A DNA stretch of 23,439 nt, from the IMG/VR virus record IMGVR_UViG_3300045988_013110, positions 1-23,439 of that record. One strand, given 5' to 3'. The stretch comes from a virus (taxonomy: Duplodnaviria; Heunggongvirae; Uroviricota; Caudoviricetes). Under the pieces are notes generated by a model. That model was not told the DNA's origin and made no database searches. It saw only the letters and a program-made list of their open reading frames with translations. Positions 137 through 14,406 of the stretch are shown here, piece by piece. Made by a program: the position numbers and the translations under genes. Position 1 is the first letter of the stretch, and every line of letters starts with the position of its first letter.

Positions 137-174
137 TGACGGTATTACCTTAAAGGTATACTCTCATACCGTCA
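137..174. promoter_or_regulatory. inverted-repeat cluster upstream of int containing one operator-like site (TTACC-TTAAA-GGTAT, 145-159)
   Basis: TGACGGTAT (137-145) and ATACCGTCA (166-174) form a 9-bp inverted repeat; between them lies a one-mismatch copy of the TTACC-N5-GGTAA motif. Confidence 0.35.
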
Positions 175-2996: not shown

Positions 2997-3914
2997 TTAC
3001 ATAGATGTTTCGTTTAATTCTTCCCGACGAACGCTGTAAACGTCGGTGGCTTTTGCCAGCAGTTCGTCATCATCTGAAAGTTTTTGTGCAATGTATTTGT
3101 AAGCCTTATCCAGTTCGGAGACAGTGCTGTAATTCATCGCTGCGCTGGTAAAGGCCATCAGCACTTCTTCTGGATCACGGCTATCCGCTTTACGCGTTTG
3201 CTCATCATGCTTTTTCACTGGTTTAGCGTTGATCAGACTGTTCATGCTGGATGCTGTGCCGTGCTTTGCCTGACTTCTTGGAGTTACGTCACGTTCAATA
3301 ATGTCAGGTGAGTCGATATATTTACCTTCCATTTCCTCAGCTGTGGCTTGTTGACCAATCTCCGGCCATGCTTTACGTAATGCCTGTGCCTCTGCGCATT
3401 TTGCCAACTGCGCATAAGGGCGCTTTTTCCACATGGCATTTGGTGCCGATGTGTCACGCCCCCCAGTTGCATAGTTCTCAATCCAGTATTCTTTGGCGCT
3501 AAACTCTACGATTTCCCCGCTTGCCATTCGCTTGCTGACGGTGTACTTACACCACTGAGGGAAGGTAACCTCCACGCCTGAAAGCGTTTGTGTTACATCT
3601 GGACCGAACTCAGGTTCATTAGCGCCTGCGTAATCGCCGGAACGGTAGGCCTGAATGCGATAAAGTCCAATGCCAGGCATGACCACGTCGCGCCATTCAT
3701 TCTTTCCACTCTTCGAGTCTTTAACACTCATTGGTACCAGGTGTACCGGCTTAAGAAGAGGATCGAGTTGACGCGCCCGGCAGTAATCGACTGCCATCAT
3801 TACCGATTCATCTTTTGCCCCAGGGTAAATACTGTTTTTCAGAGCGCTCCATGTAACTTCATCGATTCCCCGAATAGCCAACACATCATTGGTGATTGCA
3901 ATTTCGTTGCTCAT
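2997..3914 (-). CDS. RecT/Red-beta family single-strand annealing protein
   Basis: Segments HLVPMSVKDSKSGKNEW and AMWKKRPYAQLAKCAEAQALRKAWPE resemble the RecT family by recollection. ATG 3914 overlaps the exonuclease stop (ATGA). Confidence 0.8.
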   Translation of the reverse strand: MSNEIAITNDVLAIRGIDEVTWSALKNSIYPGAKDESVMMAVDYCRARQLDPLLKPVHLVPMSVKDSKSGKNEWRDVVMPGIGLYRIQAYRSGDYAGANEPEFGPDVTQTLSGVEVTFPQWCKYTVSKRMASGEIVEFSAKEYWIENYATGGRDTSAPNAMWKKRPYAQLAKCAEAQALRKAWPEIGQQATAEEMEGKYIDSPDIIERDVTPRSQAKHGTASSMNSLINAKPVKKHDEQTRKADSRDPEEVLMAFTSAAMNYSTVSELDKAYKYIAQKLSDDDELLAKATDVYSVRREELNETSM

Positions 3915-4732
3915 ACGTACATATCCTGTTTGCGTGCCCACTCAGGGCGTTTAATAATTTCCACGCCGCCCCATTCATCGCTGATGCGGCATTCGTGATA
4001 GGTATTCAGATCCCGGCGGAACAGAGCGTGCCCGGCATCGACATCCGGCGCATCCAGCCCGAACACGCGTACCGGATACCGACCACAATCAATGCTTTCG
4101 CTCACGGCAAGAAAGAAAAAACCATGCGGCTGACCAGTAACCCTCATTGCGCCTTCGCGGTACATTGCGTCCTGCACGTGGTAGCGGAATTCCTCGATGT
4201 GACGTGCAAAACGGTCCATATCTGCAACCTTTTTCACGTCGACGATCACGTTGTGCTCGTTCAGCCATTTGTCTGGACGAATTCGGCACAACTCACCCGT
4301 CTCTTCATCGTTCCAGTACATTGATGCTTCGCAGTAACCAGGTGCTTCCAGCATCCAGCGTGCCGCCGGGTGAGCCATTGCGCTATCACGCATCAGCTCC
4401 AGTTTCCGCCACTGCTCGGCATCAAGTACCGTAATCCCCATATCCGCTACATCACGAAGAAATGCTTCTTCGTCAGCTTTACCTTGTTTCGTCCGACGAT
4501 CGAACTTCGGTGAAACAATGAAGCGTTTGTCGAATTCTCCAGGCTCCAGAAGCAGACAGTGCAATGCGGTTCCCATATCCAGTGCAGACTTTTTCTCTTC
4601 GTCTTCTGGTGCTGCCTGAACCCATTTAAGAAGCGCCGGATTCTTGGCAACCATGTCCAGTTGCGACTTACTCACGCCGTCACCGGCGTGGTAGTCTTCG
4701 TTGCTGATGTCGAAATAAATTCCCGGTTTCAT
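3911..4732 (-). CDS. RecE-type recombination exonuclease (PD-(D/E)XK fold)
   Basis: N-terminal GIYFDISNEDYHAGDGVSKSQL and downstream acidic/Lys residues resemble the RecE C-terminal nuclease domain. Sits directly upstream of the annealase, as in RecET modules. Confidence 0.75.
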   Translation of the reverse strand: MKPGIYFDISNEDYHAGDGVSKSQLDMVAKNPALLKWVQAAPEDEEKKSALDMGTALHCLLLEPGEFDKRFIVSPKFDRRTKQGKADEEAFLRDVADMGITVLDAEQWRKLELMRDSAMAHPAARWMLEAPGYCEASMYWNDEETGELCRIRPDKWLNEHNVIVDVKKVADMDRFARHIEEFRYHVQDAMYREGAMRVTGQPHGFFFLAVSESIDCGRYPVRVFGLDAPDVDAGHALFRRDLNTYHECRISDEWGGVEIIKRPEWARKQDMYV

Positions 4733-5028
4733 GCCGCGTCCCTCTGTCCATCAAGCTGATCCGCCAGATCCCAGCGCGCTATAATTGCCATTGCCTCGCG
4801 CCGGTAGGCATCCATCAGTTCTTCGAACTCAGGGCTGTCTTTAGCAGCCTCCAGCACTTCCTGACGAACGCCTTTGCCTGTTACAACGTCGAAAGTTGAG
4901 GACAGTTGATGAAGTCGGATGCTCTCAATCAGTTCAACTTGTCGGTCATATAGCTGTTCTGACAGGCGGTAGTCCTTGTCGAATGCCAGCATGATTTTTT
5001 GAAGATTTTTCTGCTGATTAACGTTCAT
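4729..5028 (-). CDS. hypothetical protein, possibly a Gam-like host-nuclease inhibitor
   Basis: 99 aa from ATG 5028 with GGAGG Shine-Dalgarno. C-terminal DSPEFEELMDAYRREAMAIIA loosely resembles the lambda Gam C-terminus by memory. Stop overlaps the exonuclease start (ATGA). Confidence 0.4.
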   Translation of the reverse strand: MNVNQQKNLQKIMLAFDKDYRLSEQLYDRQVELIESIRLHQLSSTFDVVTGKGVRQEVLEAAKDSPEFEELMDAYRREAMAIIARWDLADQLDGQRDAA

Positions 5029-5030
5029 TA

Positions 5031-5183
5031 TCAGCCCTCCCATATCTCGTTATCGTTGGCTACATCGCGAGCTTCTTTGCTGACGAAAGCCCACTTAATG
5101 CCTTCCTGTAAGGTGCGGAACTTCCAGCTCATGAATCCGCATGCAGTAACGCAGTACCAACCGTTGATGATTTTCCACTGCAT
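5031..5183 (-). CDS. small hypothetical protein (50 aa), first gene of the leftward operon
   Basis: Translated by hand as MQWKIINGWYCVTACGFMSWKFRTLQEGIKWAFVSKEARDVANDNEIWEG. GAGGT Shine-Dalgarno 8 nt upstream. Below the length cutoff of the ORF track. Confidence 0.35.
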   Translation of the reverse strand: MQWKIINGWYCVTACGFMSWKFRTLQEGIKWAFVSKEARDVANDNEIWEG

Positions 5184-5189
5184 AACTTG

Positions 5190-5279
5190 TTACCTCGGTC
5201 TGTTACCGTTGGGGTAATAATTATGCTTATTTGGTTTGGTGTCAATAGATATGAGTTAAAAAAATTACCCGTAAGGTAA
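5190..5279. promoter_or_regulatory. OL-like operator pair plus half-site upstream of the leftward operon
   Basis: Perfect TTACC-N5-GGTAA at 5203-5217 and 5265-5279 (centres 62 bp apart), plus a TTACC half-site at 5190-5194. Confidence 0.55.
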
Positions 5280-5291
5280 TCTATCTGGCAA

Positions 5292-5315
5292 TAAAAAAGC
5301 CGCCATGAGGCGGCT
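5292..5315 (-). terminator. rho-independent terminator downstream of the repressor gene
   Basis: Stem GCCGCC / GGCGGC with loop ATGA; on the minus strand it is followed by TTTTTT. Confidence 0.6.
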
Positions 5316-5336
5316 TACTTACTGAAAACTATAGTT

Positions 5337-5921
5337 TTATTGTTTGCTTTTTTCGTTCTGGTTGATGACAAATTCAATGTAACTTTCGATCTTTGCTTTC
5401 TCGGTTTCGGGTAACAATGCGTAGCGCGAGCGATCATAGTTGATGGTCGCAGGGTCGTGCGGGTGAATCAGTAATTCATAGCCGTGACGCCCGAATGCGG
5501 ATGCAACATTCTCCAGGGTGGAAATGGAAACGCTGACCTCATTGTTTAACAGGCGACTGATTGTCACCTGGGCGACGCCGGATGCGCGGTGAAGTTTTCC
5601 CTGCGTTGAAAGGTCGCGGCTTTCGCTCATCCAGCGTTCCAGGTTGTGAGCCGCCAGCTGACCAATGTCGCTTGGGCCGACAGGCTGAAAACCTTCCTGA
5701 GAAAGCGAGCGATCGATATCAAGCCAGTTACGGGGTTTATTGGCGGCAGCTTCAATTTTTCGCGCAACCTGGTCGCCGATAACCTTCTTGCCAAGAGCCC
5801 AGCGGTTTACCAGATTTGCCTGAGTTCCAAGTTTTTCTGCCATCCGCGTCTGAACACCATTGAATTCACGGTCGATCAAGTCGTTGAGATTTTGCCTGCG
5901 GACGTCCTGGATACTTTTCAT
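5337..5921 (-). CDS. prophage repressor (CI-like) with two HTH regions and no obvious S24 peptidase domain
   Basis: Two XRE-type HTH stretches (MAEKLGTQANLVNRWALGKK and ASGVAQVTISRLLNNEVSVSISTLENVA). No GDSM-type Ser/Lys autocleavage motif seen. Divergent from a Cro-like gene with operators in between. Confidence 0.7.
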   Translation of the reverse strand: MKSIQDVRRQNLNDLIDREFNGVQTRMAEKLGTQANLVNRWALGKKVIGDQVARKIEAAANKPRNWLDIDRSLSQEGFQPVGPSDIGQLAAHNLERWMSESRDLSTQGKLHRASGVAQVTISRLLNNEVSVSISTLENVASAFGRHGYELLIHPHDPATINYDRSRYALLPETEKAKIESYIEFVINQNEKSKQ

Positions 5922-5976
5922 TTTCTGGAAAATCGCCTCATATATGAATCAGTAGATGATTCAATTTAAAGCAATA

Positions 5977-6039
5977 TTACCCAACAGGTAAATGCACCCC
6001 ATAGGTAACTATCCTTGATTTTTGTTACCTTATGGGTGA
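5977..6039. promoter_or_regulatory. OR-like tripartite operator region between the repressor and Cro-like gene
   Basis: TTACC-CAACA-GGTAA (5977-5991), GCACC-CCATA-GGTAA (5994-6008) and TTACC-TTATG-GGTGA (6025-6039) lie in the 154-bp divergent intergenic region. Confidence 0.6.
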
Positions 6040-6075
6040 ATATTTATTATCTGAAATAAATATCAGGCAATAGCT

Positions 6076-6306
6076 ATGAGCGATAACGGACATTTCGATT
6101 TCAAAAAGCACTGGCTTGCACTTACTCCGGATGAGCGTGAAGCCTTCGCACAGGAAGCCGGAACGACGAGTCACTATATCCAGACTCACTTAACAGGTAA
6201 GCGCAAAATGCCAGGTAAGGTATTGATGAATGGGCTTTTTAAAGCCTGTAAAACAAGACAATGGCTGCGCTCAAAAGCAGAACTGGCATACTTCTTCTAC
6301 TCATGA
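6076..6306 (+). CDS. Cro-like HTH protein
   Basis: 76-aa ORF divergent from the repressor; HTH-like stretch TSHYIQTHLTGKRKMPGK; followed by a terminator. Confidence 0.55.
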   Translation: MSDNGHFDFKKHWLALTPDEREAFAQEAGTTSHYIQTHLTGKRKMPGKVLMNGLFKACKTRQWLRSKAELAYFFYS

Positions 6307-6327
6307 TATCCAGCCACAACCCTCTGT

Positions 6328-6351
6328 AGACCGCCATCCGGCGGTCTTTTC
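6328..6351 (+). terminator. rho-independent terminator after the Cro-like gene
   Basis: Stem AGACCGCC / GGCGGTCT with loop ATCC, followed by a short T-run (TTTTC). Confidence 0.5.
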
Positions 6352-6362
6352 ATATCTATTCG

Positions 6363-6377
6363 CACCTAAAAGGTAAC
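6363..6377. promoter_or_regulatory. operator-like site (GCACC-TAAAA-GGTAA) ahead of the replication operon
   Basis: Same left-half variant (GCACC) as the OR site at 5994-6008; lies just downstream of the terminator at 6328-6351. Confidence 0.4.
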
Positions 6378-6457
6378 AAAAAACCAAATCTGGTTGATCT
6401 TTTTTTTTGTGTCAGCACAAAATGACCGTAATCCCAATACTAATAACAGGGCTTACC

Positions 6458-6658
6458 ATGGAAATCATTACACGTATTGATGCCGCAAAGCGCGGACTTA
6501 AACGCTACTACACCGGAAAACCATGTAAGCATGGACATGACAGTGAACGCTGGGTTTACAACGGACACTGTGTTGAGTGCACCATGGAATCAAACCGTCG
6601 CATCAGGGCAGAGATTAAGCAGATCATGATTAATTCCTCCCCACAACACTCAAGCTGA
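6458..6658 (+). CDS. hypothetical Cys/His-containing small protein
   Basis: Start taken at MEIITRID (the upstream ATG at 6407 has no Shine-Dalgarno). Contains CKHGHD...CVEC, a possible zinc-binding motif. Confidence 0.4.
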   Translation: MEIITRIDAAKRGLKRYYTGKPCKHGHDSERWVYNGHCVECTMESNRRIRAEIKQIMINSSPQHSS

Positions 6659-6673
6659 TAGCGGAGATTAATC

Positions 6674-7507
6674 ATGAGCAGACATGCAACAGATTGGGCC
6701 TGGGAGACAGATCCAGGTAGCTCATCATTAAAGCTCATACTGCTCTCGATGGCTGACAGAGCCGATGAATATAACCTCTGCTACCCCAGCATAGAACGCC
6801 TCGTTAAAGACACTTGCCTGAATAAAAAAACCGTGCAGGCCGGGCTTATATCGCTCATGAAAATGGGGCTTATTTCAGATACCGGAGAGAGAAAGGGAGC
6901 GACAAAAAGAGTGCGGGTTTTCTCTCTTAATATAACCAAAAACGGGAACATTAAAGGCAACCTAGAAGGGTGTAATGAACCCGAAAACGGTAATGTTCCC
7001 GAAAACGGGAATATACCCAAAAACGGGATGTTGAATGATCCCAAAAACGGGATGTTGAATGATCCCAAAAACGGGATCCAGAACCAGTCATATAACCAGT
7101 CATTTAACCAAGAGAGGGAGAGCAGGACAAAAACCGGGGATTCTGTGCCTCATGACCCCGGCGCAAACAACGCCGTGATGAATAACTTTGTTCCTCCTGG
7201 TGGGCCAGGGCAATTAGGCAAATTTGTCATGCATGAACAATGGCAGCCATCAGATGACTTTCTTCGGAAAAGCTCATTGCAGGGAATCTACCTGGACAGT
7301 CTGCCAACGGCACAGGAACTTGCAGAGTTCAGAATTTACTGGATGGCTGAGGGTAAGGCATACCATCAGGCACAGTGGGAGCAGAAGCTGGCAAGGCGCA
7401 TCCAGTTCTGTAGACAGAAATCAGGTGAAGTCAGAAAGAGCCTTGACTGGCATAACACTGACTGGATAGATGAGGTGTGGGATGAAATCAACTCCAGAAC
7501 TTCTTAA
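6674..7507 (+). CDS. replication initiation protein (HTH N-terminus, DnaT-like C-terminus) with embedded iterons
   Basis: N-terminus (WAWETDPGSSSLKLILLSMADRADEYNLCYPSIERLVKDTC) resembles HTH domains of phage replication initiators; the C-terminal region looks DnaT-like. An iteron array lies inside the gene, as ori does in lambda O. Confidence 0.7.
   Translation: MSRHATDWAWETDPGSSSLKLILLSMADRADEYNLCYPSIERLVKDTCLNKKTVQAGLISLMKMGLISDTGERKGATKRVRVFSLNITKNGNIKGNLEGCNEPENGNVPENGNIPKNGMLNDPKNGMLNDPKNGIQNQSYNQSFNQERESRTKTGDSVPHDPGANNAVMNNFVPPGGPGQLGKFVMHEQWQPSDDFLRKSSLQGIYLDSLPTAQELAEFRIYWMAEGKAYHQAQWEQKLARRIQFCRQKSGEVRKSLDWHNTDWIDEVWDEINSRTS
6935..7104. repeat. iteron array, candidate origin of replication
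   Basis: Six copies of core CC(C/A)(G/A)AAAACGG(G/T) starting near 6936, 6980, 6998, 7016, 7040 and 7064 (spacing 18, 18, 24, 24 bp), then AACCAGTCAT twice (7082-7103). Confidence 0.6.
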
Positions 7508-8264: not shown

Positions 8265-8301
8265 TACCAGCGCGATAGCGCATTTTTTTACGTCTTGATA
8301 A

Positions 8302-8378
8302 TTACCTGTTGGGTAATAAAATATTCTAAAATCTATTGATTTCGTGTCTTATGTGGTTTTTAATTACCTCAGAGGTAA
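8302..8378. promoter_or_regulatory. operator pair upstream of the middle-gene operon
   Basis: Perfect TTACC-N5-GGTAA at 8302-8316 and 8364-8378, centres 62 bp apart. The proximal site overlaps the Shine-Dalgarno (AGAGG) of the gene starting at 8382. Confidence 0.5.
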
Positions 8379-8381
8379 ATC

Positions 8382-8726
8382 ATGAGAAAACAGATACAGG
8401 CTCTTGGTCGACTCAAAACAGGCCAGATGAACAAAACAGAATCTGCGTATTGCCAGCACCTTGAGCAGCGTAAACGTGCAGGGGAAATCGCTTGGTATCG
8501 ATTCGAGGGTATCAAGCTGCGGTTAGCTGACAACACGTTCTATACGCCCGATTTTGCTGTGATGCTCGCTACCGGCGAGATGGAACTGCACGAAGTGAAA
8601 GGTTTCTGGACCGACGACGCCAGAGTGAAAACAAAAGTCGCCGCAGATCAGTATCCGTTCCGAATAATCGGGGTAACGGTTAAACCAAAGAAAGCAGGTG
8701 GCGGCTGGAACATCGAAGAGTTCTGA
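8382..8726 (+). CDS. hypothetical phage protein (DUF1064-like by recollection)
   Basis: 114-aa ORF; pattern YTPDFAV...HEVKGFWTDDARVKTKVAADQYP. Confidence 0.5.
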   Translation: MRKQIQALGRLKTGQMNKTESAYCQHLEQRKRAGEIAWYRFEGIKLRLADNTFYTPDFAVMLATGEMELHEVKGFWTDDARVKTKVAADQYPFRIIGVTVKPKKAGGGWNIEEF

Positions 8727-9955: not shown

Positions 9956-10185
9956 TTGAGGGTATTAGCAATAAATCGTTGAACACAGCATGTGTCGACG
10001 GTGGGTTGTTGTACAAAGTGACGTTTACGCAAATCGACAACGAAGATAACGCATTCACTGTGATTTACACGTCGCCAGCGATGGCGCAGAAGTGGGTGGA
10101 TCTGCACAGGCTATGTGGTTTTCGTGTTGAGTGGGGGTGTTATGAGATGCGATGCAGATGGCATCATCGGGGGGATGAAAAATGA
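9952..10185 (+). CDS. hypothetical protein
   Basis: 77-aa ORF, start overlapping the upstream gene. Confidence 0.4.
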   Translation: MIEGISNKSLNTACVDGGLLYKVTFTQIDNEDNAFTVIYTSPAMAQKWVDLHRLCGFRVEWGCYEMRCRWHHRGDEK

Positions 10186-10983: not shown

Positions 10984-11032
10984 CATGTCACGAGTGGGTT
11001 ATGCATGATGAATTTGATGGGTTTTGAATACT

Positions 11033-11058
11033 GCCGCCAACTATGGCGGCTTTATTTT
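11033..11058 (+). terminator. rho-independent terminator upstream of the terminase genes
   Basis: Stem GCCGCC / GGCGGC with loop AACTAT, followed by TTTATTTT. Confidence 0.65.
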
Positions 11059-11066
11059 GCATGGTA

Positions 11067-11102
11067 CTATTACCACAACGGTAACTATTACCACGGTGGT
11101 TA
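11067..11102. promoter_or_regulatory. operator-like sites and direct repeat at the packaging-operon entry
   Basis: Perfect TTACC-ACAAC-GGTAA (11070-11084) and imperfect TTACC-ACGGT-GGTTA (11088-11102), within a 10-bp direct repeat CTATTACCAC (11067-11076 and 11085-11094), immediately before the TerS start codon. Confidence 0.45.
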
Positions 11103-11701
11103 TGATGCCTGCTGAACCTAAAACCTATAAACGCAAATCAACGCAATTTAAGCCACTAACAGCAATGCAGGAGGCTTATTGCCAGTCATACATCAAAACG
11201 CCTGAAAACCAGACTCAGGCTGCGATTAATGCAGGATTCTCCCCAAATACAGCGGCAGTTAAAGCCAGTGTCATGATGCGCGATGAACGCATTCAGAAAC
11301 GGATTGCCGAGTTGATGGAGGAGCGCAACAAACGAATGCGCGTCAGTGCTGATTACGTTCTCATGCGCCTGGTGGAGATCGACCAGATGGACGTGATTGA
11401 CATTCTCAACGACGATATGAGCATCAAGCCGGTCTCGGAATGGCCTAAGGTCTGGCGGCAGTACCTGACAGGTTTCGAACTGGCCGACATGTTCGAAGGC
11501 CGTGGAGACGAGAAAGAGCTGGTTGGCATCCTCAAAAAAATTAAATGGCCTGACAAGGTGAAGAACCTCGAACTGATTGGTAAGCACGTCGACGTCAACG
11601 CATTCAAAGAACGCCTGGATGTTAATGTGAATGTGACAATTGCTGATCGCATAGCGGCAGCCAGGAAGAGACTGAAAGAACGTCAGGATGGCAATCAGTG
11701 A
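11102..11701 (+). CDS. terminase small subunit
   Basis: Start set at ATG 11102 because the track start at 11024 is a TTG lying upstream of the terminator. HTH-like segment LTAMQEAYCQSYIKTPENQTQAAINAGFSPNTAAVKAS is typical of small terminase subunits. Confidence 0.8.
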   Translation: MMPAEPKTYKRKSTQFKPLTAMQEAYCQSYIKTPENQTQAAINAGFSPNTAAVKASVMMRDERIQKRIAELMEERNKRMRVSADYVLMRLVEIDQMDVIDILNDDMSIKPVSEWPKVWRQYLTGFELADMFEGRGDEKELVGILKKIKWPDKVKNLELIGKHVDVNAFKERLDVNVNVTIADRIAAARKRLKERQDGNQ

Positions 11702-13714: not shown

Positions 13715-13739
13715 AAAAAAAATGCCCGGCGAACCGGGC
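13715..13739 (-). terminator. rho-independent terminator (minus strand)
   Basis: Stem GCCCGG / CCGGGC with loop CGAA; minus-strand T8 run follows. Confidence 0.6.
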
Positions 13740-13816
13740 GAACTGGAAGCAATGAGTTATGCCTTCCGTGGCTGTACTGGTTTACAGCATGAAGCCATCG
13801 CAATGGCGTCCTGCTG

Positions 13817-13859
13817 TAAAAAGGGCGGTGATAGTCCTTCAAGGGAAACCATCACCGCC
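13817..13859 (-). terminator. candidate terminator downstream of the tRNA
   Basis: 9-bp stem GGCGGTGAT / ATCACCGCC with an 18-nt loop, followed on the minus strand by CTTTTTA. The long loop lowers confidence. Confidence 0.4.
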
Positions 13860-13902
13860 AAGCCCCTGGAACTTCTGGCATCACGGTCCTTAGGCGTGAT
13901 TC

Positions 13903-13979
13903 TGGCGTGGCATGCAGGATTCGAACCTGCGACCAACCGCTTAGAAGGCGGTTGCTCTGTCCAACTGAGCTAATGCCAC
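13903..13979 (-). tRNA. tRNA-Arg (anticodon UCU)
   Basis: Hand-folded 77-nt cloverleaf with CCA: acceptor GTGGCAT/ATGCCAC, D-arm GCTC-AGTTGGACA-GAGC, anticodon stem ACCGC/GCGGT with loop CTTCTAA (anticodon TCT), T-arm GCAGG-TTCGAAT-CCTGC, discriminator G. Confidence 0.85.
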
Positions 13980-14301: not shown

Positions 14302-14316
14302 TTACCTGAAAGGTAA
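14302..14316. promoter_or_regulatory. operator-like site upstream of the virion operon
   Basis: Perfect TTACC-TGAAA-GGTAA; a GGTAA half-site at 14374-14378 sits at the same 62-bp centre offset. Confidence 0.45.
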
Positions 14317-14406
14317 TAATTCGCGCGTTAAATGTCAACTGTCTACGATAAATAAATCATATGTGGTTAAATTGGTAATAATTTAATTGCGTACGGAGTC
14401 ATTGAT

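Follow-up and report, generated by a model that had tools for sequence, protein, structure and literature searches.

Our analysis indicates that the 15-bp palindrome TTACC-N5-GGTAA, which recurs along a 23,439-nucleotide stretch of tailed-phage DNA (hereafter the window), is most likely the operator of this prophage's own Rep-type repressor, a member of a family that is controlled by an antirepressor. The copies that flank the repressor gene are very probably repressor operators. As such the motif is already known from the annotation of phage ε15: the RefSeq record (NC_004775) contains seven features labelled 'protein_bind, repressor, lysogeny', and all seven read ATTACC-N5-GGTAAT. Because the motif is annotated in this related phage, the window carries an ordinary copy of a known switch. 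A full-text literature search, which did not extend to the primary ε15 and SPC32H papers, gave no match to the motif strings.

The window is a phiV10/ε15-like (Uetakevirus) podovirus prophage, and guaA adjoins it. Among sequenced relatives, phiV10 (DQ126339) is the nearest: the immunity-region DNA is ≈ 98% identical in the two, and they have the same sites. They differ elsewhere: in the phiV10 record, recET is annotated as a fused gene and no tRNA is listed; in the window, the ORFs are separate and there is a tRNA-Arg. Close relatives of phiV10 are ZX5, TL-2011b and the O157 typing phages 9 and 10, and phiV10-like prophages are present in 561 of 5426 complete Escherichia coli genomes (about 10%). 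We compared the window with the genomes of phiV10, ε15, SPC32H and Tyrion and with further loci, among them L209, L210 and L211. A search for related loci by Rep alignment returned only loci that were 99 to 100% identical; since these were of no use for assessing diversity, we took instead IMG/VR loci selected by the motif and three contigs picked by protein similarity alone (Serratia, Raoultella and a metagenome), whose Rep proteins are 52 to 56% identical to that of the window.

Allowing at most one mismatch, we found 10 sites in the window (seven perfect and three with one mismatch), all of them intergenic. In 100 dinucleotide-preserving shuffles, the mean was 0.43 and the maximum 3. With up to two mismatches, there were 28 sites in the window and 6.1 in the shuffles. 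The spacer is exactly 5 nt in all seven perfect copies, and a scan of the window for perfect half-site pairs at any other spacing from 0 to 11 gave none, while lone half-sites are frequent (36 TTACC and 43 GGTAA). With its flanks, the operator is the 17-bp ATTACC-N5-GGTAAT. The comparison with host DNA that the initial annotation had proposed showed few sites there: 110,040 bp of E. coli chromosome contain one perfect and two one-mismatch sites, and the density of perfect sites is 0.009 per kb there against 0.30 per kb in the window. Two-mismatch matches occur at 0.77 per kb in the window and 0.55 per kb in the host, that is, near the host background. We therefore regard a match of this class inside the 76-aa gene (6186–6200) as due to chance; the two-mismatch sites 5994 and 6362 were kept only because of where they lie and because relatives conserve them. 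In 15 kb, the promoter scan gave 12 promoter-like hits, five of which overlap or adjoin a motif site, but these calls are consensus matches only (the shuffles gave more, 18.5), and the overlap is inflated because the operator flank itself looks like a -10 hexamer. The features are collected in Table 1; operators are referred to by their first position.

Table 1. Operators, promoter-like sites, terminators and genes in the window
Feature	Sequence	Position	Strand	Basis or remark
Operator-like site upstream of int	TTACCTTAAAGGTAT	145–159	.	One mismatch, right half
50-aa gene		5031–5183		Start ATG at 5183
Lone TTACC	TTACC	5190–5194	-	Read from sequence; 'half-site' of the initial annotation
Left operator 1	TTACCGTTGGGGTAA	5203–5217	.	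Perfect; motif scan
PL, promoter-like	TTGACA, 17 nt, AATTAT	5217–5245	-	10 of 12 consensus positions
Left operator 2	TTACCCGTAAGGTAA	5265–5279	.	Perfect; motif scan, alignment
Intrinsic terminator-like hairpin, end of repressor transcript		5297–5316	-	Scan; terminator annotated in phiV10 record
Repressor gene, 194 aa		5337–5921	-	Rep family of SPC32H and ε15 gp38
Right operator a, nearest the repressor gene	TTACCCAACAGGTAA	5977–5991	.	Perfect; motif scan, alignment
Right operator b	GCACCCCATAGGTAA	5994–6008	.	Two mismatches; weak left half GCACC
PR, promoter-like	TTGTTA, 17 nt, TATTAT	6022–6050	+	9 of 12 positions; exact hexamers uncertain
Right operator c	TTACCTTATGGGTGA	6025–6039	.	One mismatch (GGTGA); motif scan, promoter scan, alignment
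76-aa gene, Cro position (phiV10 p41, ε15 gp39)		6076–6306	+	phrog_35, AlphaFold
Terminator-like hairpin after 76-aa gene		6328–6347	+	Scan; terminator annotated in phiV10
Probable weak operator, just past the terminator at 6328–6347	GCACCTAAAAGGTAA	6362–6376	.	Two mismatches
Promoter-like site after replication genes	TTGATA, 16 nt, TAAAAT	8295–8322	+	10 of 12 positions, best in scan
Operator	TTACCTGTTGGGTAA	8302–8316	.	Perfect; motif scan, promoter scan, alignment
Operator	TTACCTCAGAGGTAA	8364–8378	.	Perfect; motif scan, alignment
Operator	TTACCACAACGGTAA	11070–11084	.	Perfect; between terminator 11033–11050 and small terminase gene
Neighbouring operator	TTACCACGGTGGTTA	11088–11102	.	One mismatch; ends 2 nt before ATG at 11105
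Operator	TTACCTGAAAGGTAA	14302–14316	.	Perfect; motif scan, promoter scan

The repressor matches SPC32H Rep (PDB 5D50_A; E = 3.5e-42) over residues 1 to 190 of its 194. It consists of an N-terminal helix-turn-helix (HTH), a central HTH_3-like part and a C-terminal region that is predicted to serve oligomerisation and antirepressor binding; this last part aligns with the oligomerisation and Ant-binding region of SPC32H Rep. Pfam, PHROGs and NCBIfam returned HTH families only, with no Peptidase_S24 or self-cleavage domain. Its identity is 99% with phiV10 p40, 78% with the Tyrion counterpart and 43% with those of ε15 and SPC32H. In 21 homologues with identities down to 41%, the putative N-terminal recognition helix, N36-L-V-N-R40-W41, shows little or no variation, and this constancy matches that of the half-sites. 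Both the 194-aa repressor ORF and the 76-aa ORF opposite it are as the initial annotation described them, and its five full or near-full palindromes around the repressor gene, at 5203, 5265, 5977, 5994 (GCACC) and 6025 (GGTGA), are all in place.

On the left side of the repressor gene, operator 5203 abuts the -10 hexamer and spans the start region of the candidate leftward early promoter PL; when it is aligned with its counterparts in ε15, Tyrion and SPC32H, its half-sites are invariant and its spacer is variable. PL would drive the 50-aa gene, a 104-aa gene and the exonuclease/RecT genes. The segment that contains its -35 hexamer, GTCAATAG, is invariant in four genomes. Operator 5265 is located upstream of this hexamer, at a centre-to-centre distance of exactly 62 bp from operator 5203, and the same spacing is found in phiV10, ε15, SPC32H, Tyrion, L210 and L211. 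On the repressor side, the hairpin at the end of the repressor transcript would shield PL against read-through. The lone TTACC at 5190–5194, which the initial annotation had counted as an operator half-site, is the reverse complement of part of GAGGTAA, a Shine-Dalgarno sequence 9 nt ahead of the start codon (ATG) of the 50-aa gene. Since it is the ribosome-binding site of that gene, an operator explanation is unnecessary, and it is probably not an operator element. The terminator scan also flagged 5187–5220.

This overlap bears on the possibility that the repeats act as RNA hairpins (5-bp stem, 5-nt loop) in termination or processing, or are by-products of GAGGTAA or of A+T-rich promoter DNA. 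Two GGTAA half-sites indeed coincide with ribosome-binding sites (5190 and 8374), the terminator flag lies over left operator 1, and RNase III sites are annotated near some copies in the ε15 record. However, a 5-bp A/U-rich stem would be very weak, and some copies precede a promoter, so that they would go untranscribed. Moreover, the half-sites stay the same in genomes that have diverged, without compensatory changes; this pattern is expected of a site read by a protein, not of a helix in RNA. As the shuffles and the host control also exclude chance or composition, we consider this explanation extremely improbable.

On the right side, three sites lie inside 63 bp: operator b is 17 bp from operator a, and operator c is 31 bp from b. 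The position of operator b is conserved: its weak left half GCACC recurs in Tyrion, and in ε15 and SPC32H the copy at this place is perfect (TTACC). The distance from a to c is 47 to 48 bp in all five genomes. Operator c overlaps a rightward promoter-like site that precedes a small HTH gene. Just upstream of this PR-like site, TTGATTTTT is invariant in four genomes. As regards PRM and PR of the lambda switch, the window has this PR-like site over operator 6025 and the candidate HTH gene, whereas the promoter scan gave no convincing hit for a promoter of rep itself. By eye, a possible rep promoter can be made out (-10 TAAATT, with a -35 TTACCT within operator 5977), but we did not adopt it because it is weak and would turn the best site into one of self-repression. 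Beyond the 76-aa gene and its terminator, the probable weak operator 6362 has ACC-N5-GGTAA invariant in five genomes, and phiV10 and Tyrion have a one-mismatch version (GTACC).

We predict that the 76-aa gene encodes a small HTH protein with five helices. The product hits phrog_35 ('transcriptional repressor'; E = 5.6e-13), and its AlphaFold model has five helices (pLDDT 86.6). The best-matching folds are the N-terminal domain of YdaS and the DNA-binding domains of the 434 repressor and the P22 c2 repressor (TM ≈ 0.6), but these matches are non-significant (E ≥ 0.5), and a search of the PDB gave no sequence match; for these two reasons, a Cro role is proposed here only provisionally. It is nevertheless conceivable, if somewhat doubtful, that this protein binds the palindromes, mainly or in addition to Rep, in a lambda-like competition that would be compatible with our main explanation. 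Its gene and rep diverge, with three operators between them. A putative recognition segment (AGTTSHYIQTHLTG) hardly varies among 20 homologues, in parallel with the invariant half-site, and the protein as a whole is as conserved as Rep, so that, by sequence, either of the two could read the motif. Against this stand, besides the poor fold matches, the ε15 record, which credits the sites to the repressor, and a published summary of the SPC32H work (PMC9638917) in which Rep is the protein that binds palindromic sites. Moreover, the remote sites at the terminase, head and int genes suit a lysogenic repressor better than a Cro protein.

These remote sites are distributed over several loci. Upstream of int, the right half of site 145 and its flank form a -10-like TATACT (157–162), 43 bp before the int start at 202; the variant TTACC-N5-GGTAT is found upstream of int also in phiV10, ε15, SPC32H, Tyrion, L210 and L211. 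After the replication genes, operator 8302 fills the spacer between the -35 and -10 hexamers of the best promoter-like site, which lies beyond the terminator that the phiV10 record shows behind the P-like gene and would drive the DUF1064 gene and genes downstream of it. The ε15 counterpart is an annotated repressor site (35906–35922). Operator 8364 is exactly 62 bp downstream of 8302 and overlaps the ribosome-binding site of the DUF1064 gene (ATG at 8382), with the same spacing in phiV10, ε15, SPC32H, Tyrion and L211. Near the small terminase gene, operators 11070 and 11088 form a pair 18 bp apart that has an equal in ε15, phiV10 and Tyrion; the counterpart of 11070 is annotated in ε15 as a repressor site (12–27). 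Finally, operator 14302 separates the leftward tRNA-Arg/p03 unit from the head genes, which run rightward. On both strands, this operator is flanked by -10-like hexamers (AATTAT/AATAAT), with a leftward promoter-like site at 14345 to 14316, and its ε15 counterpart is likewise an annotated repressor site (2931–2947).

Such a distribution could in principle reflect another kind of DNA target, namely a methyltransferase or restriction site, an integrase or excisionase arm site, or a packaging signal at the terminase pair. The phage does encode an MT-A70 adenine methylase, one pair falls where the two genome ends meet in the way the phiV10 and ε15 records are written, and one copy is near attP and int. 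Yet the copies are all intergenic and promoter-associated, which is unexpected for a methylation site, and seven or more loci of different function share this sequence, with copies flanking the repressor gene. The recurrent pair spacings of 62 and 17 to 18 bp also suit an oligomeric regulator, and we judge a target of this kind very unlikely.

The conservation of the motif points in the same direction as our main explanation, that is, an operator read by Rep. In alignments with ε15, SPC32H and Tyrion, the half-sites are invariant whereas the spacers and flanks have diverged. The motif search in related prophages that the initial annotation had suggested returned the same motif, position by position, at matching places in the window, phiV10, ε15, SPC32H and Tyrion; these places cover terS, the head genes, the left promoter, the rep-cro intergenic region, the region after the replication genes and int. 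Matching positions carry the motif in the three protein-selected loci (Serratia, Raoultella and metagenome) too. The spacing of pairs is also conserved. Among 120 IMG/VR loci, which were chosen for having a site pair and many of which are interrelated, 135 adjacent pairs are 62 to 63 bp apart, against at most three at any other distance in the range of 45 to 75 bp. The DNA between the pairs falls into five sequence-divergent classes. In the distant locus L209, the distance at the equivalent place is 75 bp. This spacing statistic is no more than suggestive of looping.

Comparison with known systems places the switch closest to those of ε15 and SPC32H. The ε15 gp38 system shares with the window an identical operator (ATTACC-N5-GGTAAT), the gene order and the guaA attachment site. 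It differs in having three full left sites, spaced at 76 and 62 bp, against two in the window, and a perfect middle site on the right where the window has the weakened GCACC. The three sites that our scan finds between gp38 and gp39 are without annotation in the ε15 record. In the SPC32H Rep–Ant switch (PDB 5D4Z and 5D50), the operator motif and layout are as in the window, and Rep is a full-length homologue (43% identical), likewise without a self-cleavage domain.

The initial annotation had likened the layout to OL and OR of lambda. As in the CI/Cro switch, a repressor gene and a small HTH gene diverge across three palindromic operators, operators are found at the leftward early promoter, and the sites would be read by HTH proteins. 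The right side, with three sites within 63 bp, bears out the comparison; the left side does not, since lambda has three adjacent operators at both OL and OR, whereas the window has on the left two sites 62 bp apart that bracket a promoter. Neither is this a switch of two operator regions: lambda operators are confined to the immunity region, whereas the window has operators at no fewer than five further loci (145, 8302, 8364, 11070, 11088 and 14302). In addition, lambda CI has an S24 self-cleavage C-terminal domain, whereas the repressor of the window belongs to a different family and lacks S24. Because of the widely spaced left pair around its promoter and of an induction logic that would also differ, the resemblance to OL and OR is partial only. 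The half-site sequence and the 5-nt spacer are, as first noted, not those of lambda, P22 c2 or 434 cI. The specificity that had been ascribed to the repressor on these grounds is thus its own with respect to these three phages, but it is not private, since the identical motif occurs in ε15, SPC32H, Tyrion and prophages of Serratia and Raoultella.

Dispersed operators have precedents. The C1 repressor of P1 has operators dispersed over the genome and shares the antirepressor theme (Coi and Ant), and the 'stoperators' of mycobacteriophage L5 gp71 lie within transcription units in one orientation. All three systems have many scattered sites for one repressor, including sites before late or accessory functions. 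The P1 and L5 sites are asymmetric, however, whereas those of the window are palindromic and mostly overlap promoter-like hexamers, and the P1 and L5 repressors are not known to be related to Rep.

According to passages in two published accounts, SPC32H Rep is a tetramer that binds palindromic sites and is disassembled by tetrameric Ant (PMC9638917; PMC9986798). By analogy, the N-terminal HTH domains of the window's Rep would read the two half-sites, and one tetramer may be able to hold, and perhaps bridge, two operators. In the lysogen, Rep would then occupy operators that overlap or bracket promoters: the 62-bp pair around PL, the three sites between rep and the gene in the Cro position (one of them inside PR), the 62-bp pair at the promoter after the replication genes, and the sites before int, terminase and head genes. 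With operators at so many promoters, Rep would repress most of the genome directly, beyond the two early operons. Over-expression of the ZX5 repressor, which is called identical to that of phiV10, lowers holin and endolysin transcripts by > 99.9% (PMC9782041).

Induction would proceed without self-cleavage of the repressor: a small Ant protein expressed from a LexA-controlled promoter would dismantle the Rep tetramer. phiV10 p24 is 88% identical to SPC32H Ant (PDB 5D50_E; E = 2.9e-46), and the matching region lies beyond the end of the window. Upstream of p24, phiV10 has a LexA box (CTGTATAAATACACAG), and a box of the form CTGT-N8-ACAG is present upstream of the Ant gene in phiV10, ε15, SPC32H and Tyrion. 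Kim and Ryu reportedly found in 2013 that SPC32H ant is under LexA control. The divergent C-terminal part of Rep led us to consider that the pairing of Ant with Rep might be the seat of immunity and induction specificity; we dropped this idea because, between phiV10 and SPC32H, Ant is 88% identical and Rep only 43%.

For the family as a whole, we put forward a tentative reading that is, in all its parts together, rather unlikely to hold. A Rep tetramer would clamp operators 62 to 63 bp apart (about six helical turns), both at PL and from the delayed-early promoter to the next ribosome-binding site, and Rep would in addition directly silence the units for int, terminase, head, tail fibre and lysis. 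Across prophages of Escherichia, Salmonella, Enterobacter, Serratia and Raoultella, there is next to no variation in operator, recognition helix and antirepressor, whereas the rest of Rep drifts as far as 41% identity. On this reading, all members of the family would belong to one cross-immune and cross-inducible group, in contrast to the lambdoid phages with their many immunity types.

In practical terms, the operator set annotated in ε15 can be transferred to phiV10-like prophages, whose GenBank records go without such features (that of phiV10 has none annotated). A divergent repressor/Cro pair need not mean a lambda-like switch in which the repressor is cleaved through RecA; the pair in the window belongs instead with the antirepressor-controlled Rep family. 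The 62-bp pairs and the constancy of the operator may offer modest leads on repressor oligomers, DNA looping and cross-talk between prophages.

A scan for the 15-bp palindrome TTACC-N5-GGTAA bore out the five full or near-full copies that the initial annotation had placed around the repressor gene, all within 5190-6039. The motif is enriched in the window beyond chance: allowing one mismatch, we found 10 sites, while 100 dinucleotide-preserving shuffles averaged 0.43 and never exceeded 3, and allowing two mismatches, there were 28 sites as against 6.1 in the shuffles. Lone half-sites are frequent (36 TTACC and 43 GGTAA). Using spacings of 0 to 11 nt, every perfect half-site pair in the window had a 5-nt spacer and none had any other spacing. 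For a host control we turned to the E. coli genome that carries the closest copy of the prophage; 110,040 bp of its chromosome contained one perfect and two one-mismatch sites. The density of perfect sites was thus 0.009 per kb in host DNA and 0.30 per kb in the window, and the similar density in the host that had been named as an argument against the operators was not seen. Two-mismatch matches were roughly equally dense in the window and the host (0.77 and 0.55 per kb) and therefore carry no weight by themselves. The TTACC at 5190, initially read as an operator half-site, is the reverse complement of GAGGTAA, the Shine-Dalgarno sequence 9 nt before the ATG (5183) of a 50-aa gene, and was therefore excluded from the operator elements.

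The ten sites with no more than one mismatch all fall in intergenic DNA, which we estimate from gene calls and annotation to be about one tenth of the window. Five of the 12 promoter-like matches in the first 15 kb, called by consensus match only, overlapped or abutted a site; the 17-bp motif (GGTAATAA) has a flank that looks like a −10 hexamer, and this resemblance both accounts for the overlap and inflates it. The same scan of the first 15 kb did not locate the promoter of the repressor gene. The pair before the small terminase gene (terS) may target a promoter or block read-through from the early right operon. In the phiV10 record this gene (window 11024-11701) starts at a TTG at 11024 (225 aa), so that both operators and a terminator-like hairpin would fall within the coding sequence. 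A start at the ATG of position 11105 yields a 198-aa product, as long as ε15p01, and makes the hairpin and operators intergenic, so the start in the phiV10 record probably lies too far upstream.

Operator sites, promoter-like matches and neighbouring features (window coordinates unless a genome is named)
Feature	Position	Strand or direction	Remark
Perfect TTACC-N5-GGTAA	5203, 5265, 5977		motif scan
GCACC-N5-GGTAA variant	5994		motif scan
TTACC-N5-GGTGA variant	6025		motif scan
Lone TTACC	5190		read from sequence
194-aa ORF	5337-5921	minus	flanked by sites
76-aa ORF	6076-6306	plus	faced by sites
Site	145		43 bp before int
Sites	8302, 8364		downstream of replication genes
Sites	11070, 11088		between terminator and small terminase gene
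Site	14302		between leftward tRNA-Arg/p03 unit and head genes
Promoter-like TTGACA-17-AATTAT	5245..5217	leftward	site 5203 begins at last −10 base; site 5265 is 20 bp upstream of −35
Promoter-like TTGTTA-17-TATTAT	6022..6050	rightward	site 6025 inside
Promoter-like TTGATA-16-TAAAAT	8295..8322	rightward	spacer filled by site 8302
Promoter-like match	14345..14316	leftward	abuts site 14302
Weak promoter-like match	8350..8323	leftward	between sites of 8302/8364 pair
LexA box; Rep operator	phiV10 20822 and 20877 (unordered pair)		ant/tail-fibre intergenic region
LexA box; Rep operator	SPC32H 19958 and 20013 (unordered pair)		ant/tail-fibre intergenic region
LexA box; Rep operator	ε15 19841 and 19896 (unordered pair)		ant/tail-fibre intergenic region
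(A/T)TATGTGGTT box	8349-8358, 14359-14368, also 10112-10120
(A/T)TATGTGGTT box	phiV10 3309, 20922, 35117; ε15 2989, 24752; Tyrion 4026, 21439
tRNA-Arg (anticodon TCT)	13903-13979	minus	ARAGORN; Rfam 73.3 bits
ORF p04	13722-13973	plus	hypothetical protein in phiV10 record
LexA-box core CTGTACTGGTTTACAG	13772-13787; phiV10 2722		perfect, by sequence match
Terminator-like hairpins	13859..13824, 13739..13724	minus
RecT and exonuclease ORFs	2997-4732	minus	314 aa and 273 aa
DnaT-like gene	6674-7507		tandem repeat at ~7020-7070

The RefSeq record of ε15 contains seven features labelled 'protein_bind, repressor, lysogeny', all seven of which read ATTACC-N5-GGTAAT. The motif search in related prophages proposed initially gave 8-11 perfect copies per genome at matching positions in ε15, phiV10, SPC32H and Tyrion. 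The shared positions are a one-mismatch TTACC-N5-GGTAT before int, a left-promoter pair exactly 62 bp apart (ε15 and SPC32H add a third site 76 bp away), three sites, spaced by 17 and by 30-31 bp, between the repressor and Cro-position genes, another pair with a spacing of exactly 62 bp downstream of the replication genes, an 18-bp pair before terS, and single sites before the head genes, in the ant/tail-fibre intergenic region and before the holin genes. When four intergenic regions were aligned, the half-sites were invariant, the spacers varied and the flanks diverged; intergenic alignments also back the weaker sites at 5994 and 6362. To avoid motif-based selection, we took three distant homologues of the repressor (52-56% identity; Serratia, Raoultella and a metagenome). 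Their loci carry the motif upstream of int, between rep and cro, downstream of the replication genes and at the left promoter, where the spacing is 62 bp in two of the three and 75 bp in the third.

Searching IMG/VR for perfect sites paired at a distance of 45-75 bp yielded at least 120 loci. Among the 120 loci listed, at least 116 adjacent pairs were spaced by 62 bp and at least 19 by 63 bp, and any other distance within the selected range occurred in at most three pairs. At least 25 adjacent pairs lay 17 bp apart, a distance outside the selection. The DNA between the 62-63-bp pairs of these loci falls into five classes with < 70% identity between classes, and in 83 of the 120 loci the stretch of DNA covered encodes a repressor homologue (30-100% identity). 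Since the loci were chosen for having a pair and many are related, the spacing is suggestive, and not proof, of a geometric constraint of about six helical turns between paired operators, as would be expected if one tetramer bridges two operators.

The 194-aa repressor (Rep) matches SPC32H Rep (PDB 5D50 chain A) over residues 1-190 (E = 3.5e-42). It shares 99% identity with phiV10 p40, 78% with its Tyrion counterpart and 43% with those of ε15 and SPC32H. A Pfam search returned HTH families only (HTH_3, residues 106-147, and, more weakly, a YdaS-like HTH, residues 21-61) and no S24 peptidase domain. Among 21 homologues the N-terminal domain is the best-conserved part; identity to ε15 is 53% in residues 1-72 and 35% in residues 91-150. 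Residues Q24, R26, E29 and N36-L-V-N-R40-W41 are invariant or nearly so in this set, which fits one operator specificity across the whole Rep family. In two papers that cite the SPC32H structure (PMC9638917, PMC9986798), SPC32H Rep is described as a tetramer on palindromic sites, with the DNA-binding pair coming from domains of different dimers and a C-terminal tetramerisation domain resembling that of p53; the small antirepressor Ant is described as a tetramer that binds two Rep dimers and breaks the Rep tetramer.

The window does not include the ant gene. The phiV10 protein p24 shares 88% identity with SPC32H Ant (PDB 5D50 chain E, E = 2.9e-46), and a CTGT-N8-ACAG LexA box is present upstream of ant in phiV10, ε15, SPC32H and Tyrion. 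Kim and Ryu are said to have described control of ant by LexA in 2013. Complete relatives have a Rep operator ∼ 55 bp from this LexA box, in the ant/tail-fibre intergenic region, so LexA and Rep may both control the promoter of the antirepressor or of the tail fibre.

The 76-aa protein matches phrog_35 ('transcriptional repressor', E = 5.6e-13); searches of Pfam and of PDB sequences gave no match. It is strongly conserved, above all AGTTSHYIQTHLTG. The predicted structure is a five-helix bundle (pLDDT 86.6), and its nearest folds, at TM ∼ 0.55-0.62 with E-values that are not significant, are lambda-repressor-like HTH domains (YdaS N-terminal domain, 434 repressor and P22 c2). A function like that of Cro is plausible for this protein.

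The immunity region shares 97-98% identity with phiV10 and a group of its close relatives, and 76-78% with the Enterobacter phages Tyrion and BUCT554, all ε15-like temperate podoviruses of the genus Uetakevirus. Positions 1-11 ('tgggaatgatt') fall within the attachment core and are the last bases of attgagtgggaatgatt, given as attP for phiV10, ε15 and ZX5 (PMC9782041). The closest E. coli genome carries the prophage directly 3' of guaA. Gene order in the window runs from int through early genes to terminase, portal and tail genes. The immunity region (5000-6700) was found in 561 of 5426 complete E. coli genomes. Since 541 of the 564 matching records are at least 95% identical to it (15 at ≥ 99% and 526 at 95-99%), the E. 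coli members of this prophage family have, as judged by sequence identity, very little immunity diversity. When the repressor of the close relative ZX5, described as identical to the phiV10 repressor, was over-expressed, free phage disappeared and holin and endolysin transcripts fell by > 99.9% (PMC9782041).

The likeness to lambda OL/OR in the initial annotation held in part. The right side looks like lambda OR, and the system works like a phage immunity switch. However, the features that define the lambda family are lacking: an S24 domain is absent from Rep, the left side does not form a tripartite operator of adjacent sites, and operators also occur beyond the immunity region. The system agreed with the ε15/SPC32H Rep family in every test that could be run.

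We propose that, in a lysogen, Rep tetramers would bind the two sites on either side of the left early promoter and the three sites separating rep from the Cro-position gene, where they would block the rightward early promoter. They would further occupy the site pair of the delayed-early promoter and the operators, single or adjacent, that precede int, terS and the head genes. In complete genomes, Rep would also sit before the tail-fibre/ant and lysis units. Upon DNA damage LexA would leave the ant promoter, and Ant would take the Rep tetramer apart, so that all units would be freed together. The scheme starts from the observed sites, their statistics, positions and conservation, and the homologies; it posits that Rep binds and bridges the sites, that the promoters are those named, that rep is autoregulated and that the 76-aa protein has the role assigned to it.

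Several other features were seen. A second conserved box, (A/T)TATGTGGTT, begins 45-57 bp downstream of the Rep operator start in several rightward units, namely those that follow the replication genes or precede the head, tail-fibre and holin genes. Its exact 9-mer occurs three times in the window versus ∼ 0.18 expected for a random 9-mer, and one ε15 copy coincides with an annotated RNase III site. The tRNA-Arg overlaps the p04 ORF, which may be spurious; the tRNA is annotated in SPC32H and in the E. coli MS 196-1 prophage, and not in the phiV10 record. Downstream of the tRNA, CTGTACTGGTTTACAG lies between the two terminator-like hairpins. RecT and a PD-(D/E)XK exonuclease are encoded by separate overlapping ORFs, and are separate also in ε15 and Tyrion, whereas the phiV10 record has one fused 'recET' gene. 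In the DnaT-like gene, two minus-strand copies of TGGGATCATTCAACATCCCGTTTTTGGG, 24 bp apart, were called as hairpins by the terminator scan; we rejected this call, as they form a tandem repeat encoding repeated PKNGMLND peptide units.

The finding is already known, because ε15 has this motif annotated and, for the repressor family, a structure has been solved and a mechanism published. That the fixed 62-bp pairs, together with the constancy of the operator and Ant across genera, are both true and new seems to us unlikely. The phiV10 record has no operator features, and the useful output is therefore an operator annotation that can be transferred to phiV10-like prophages.
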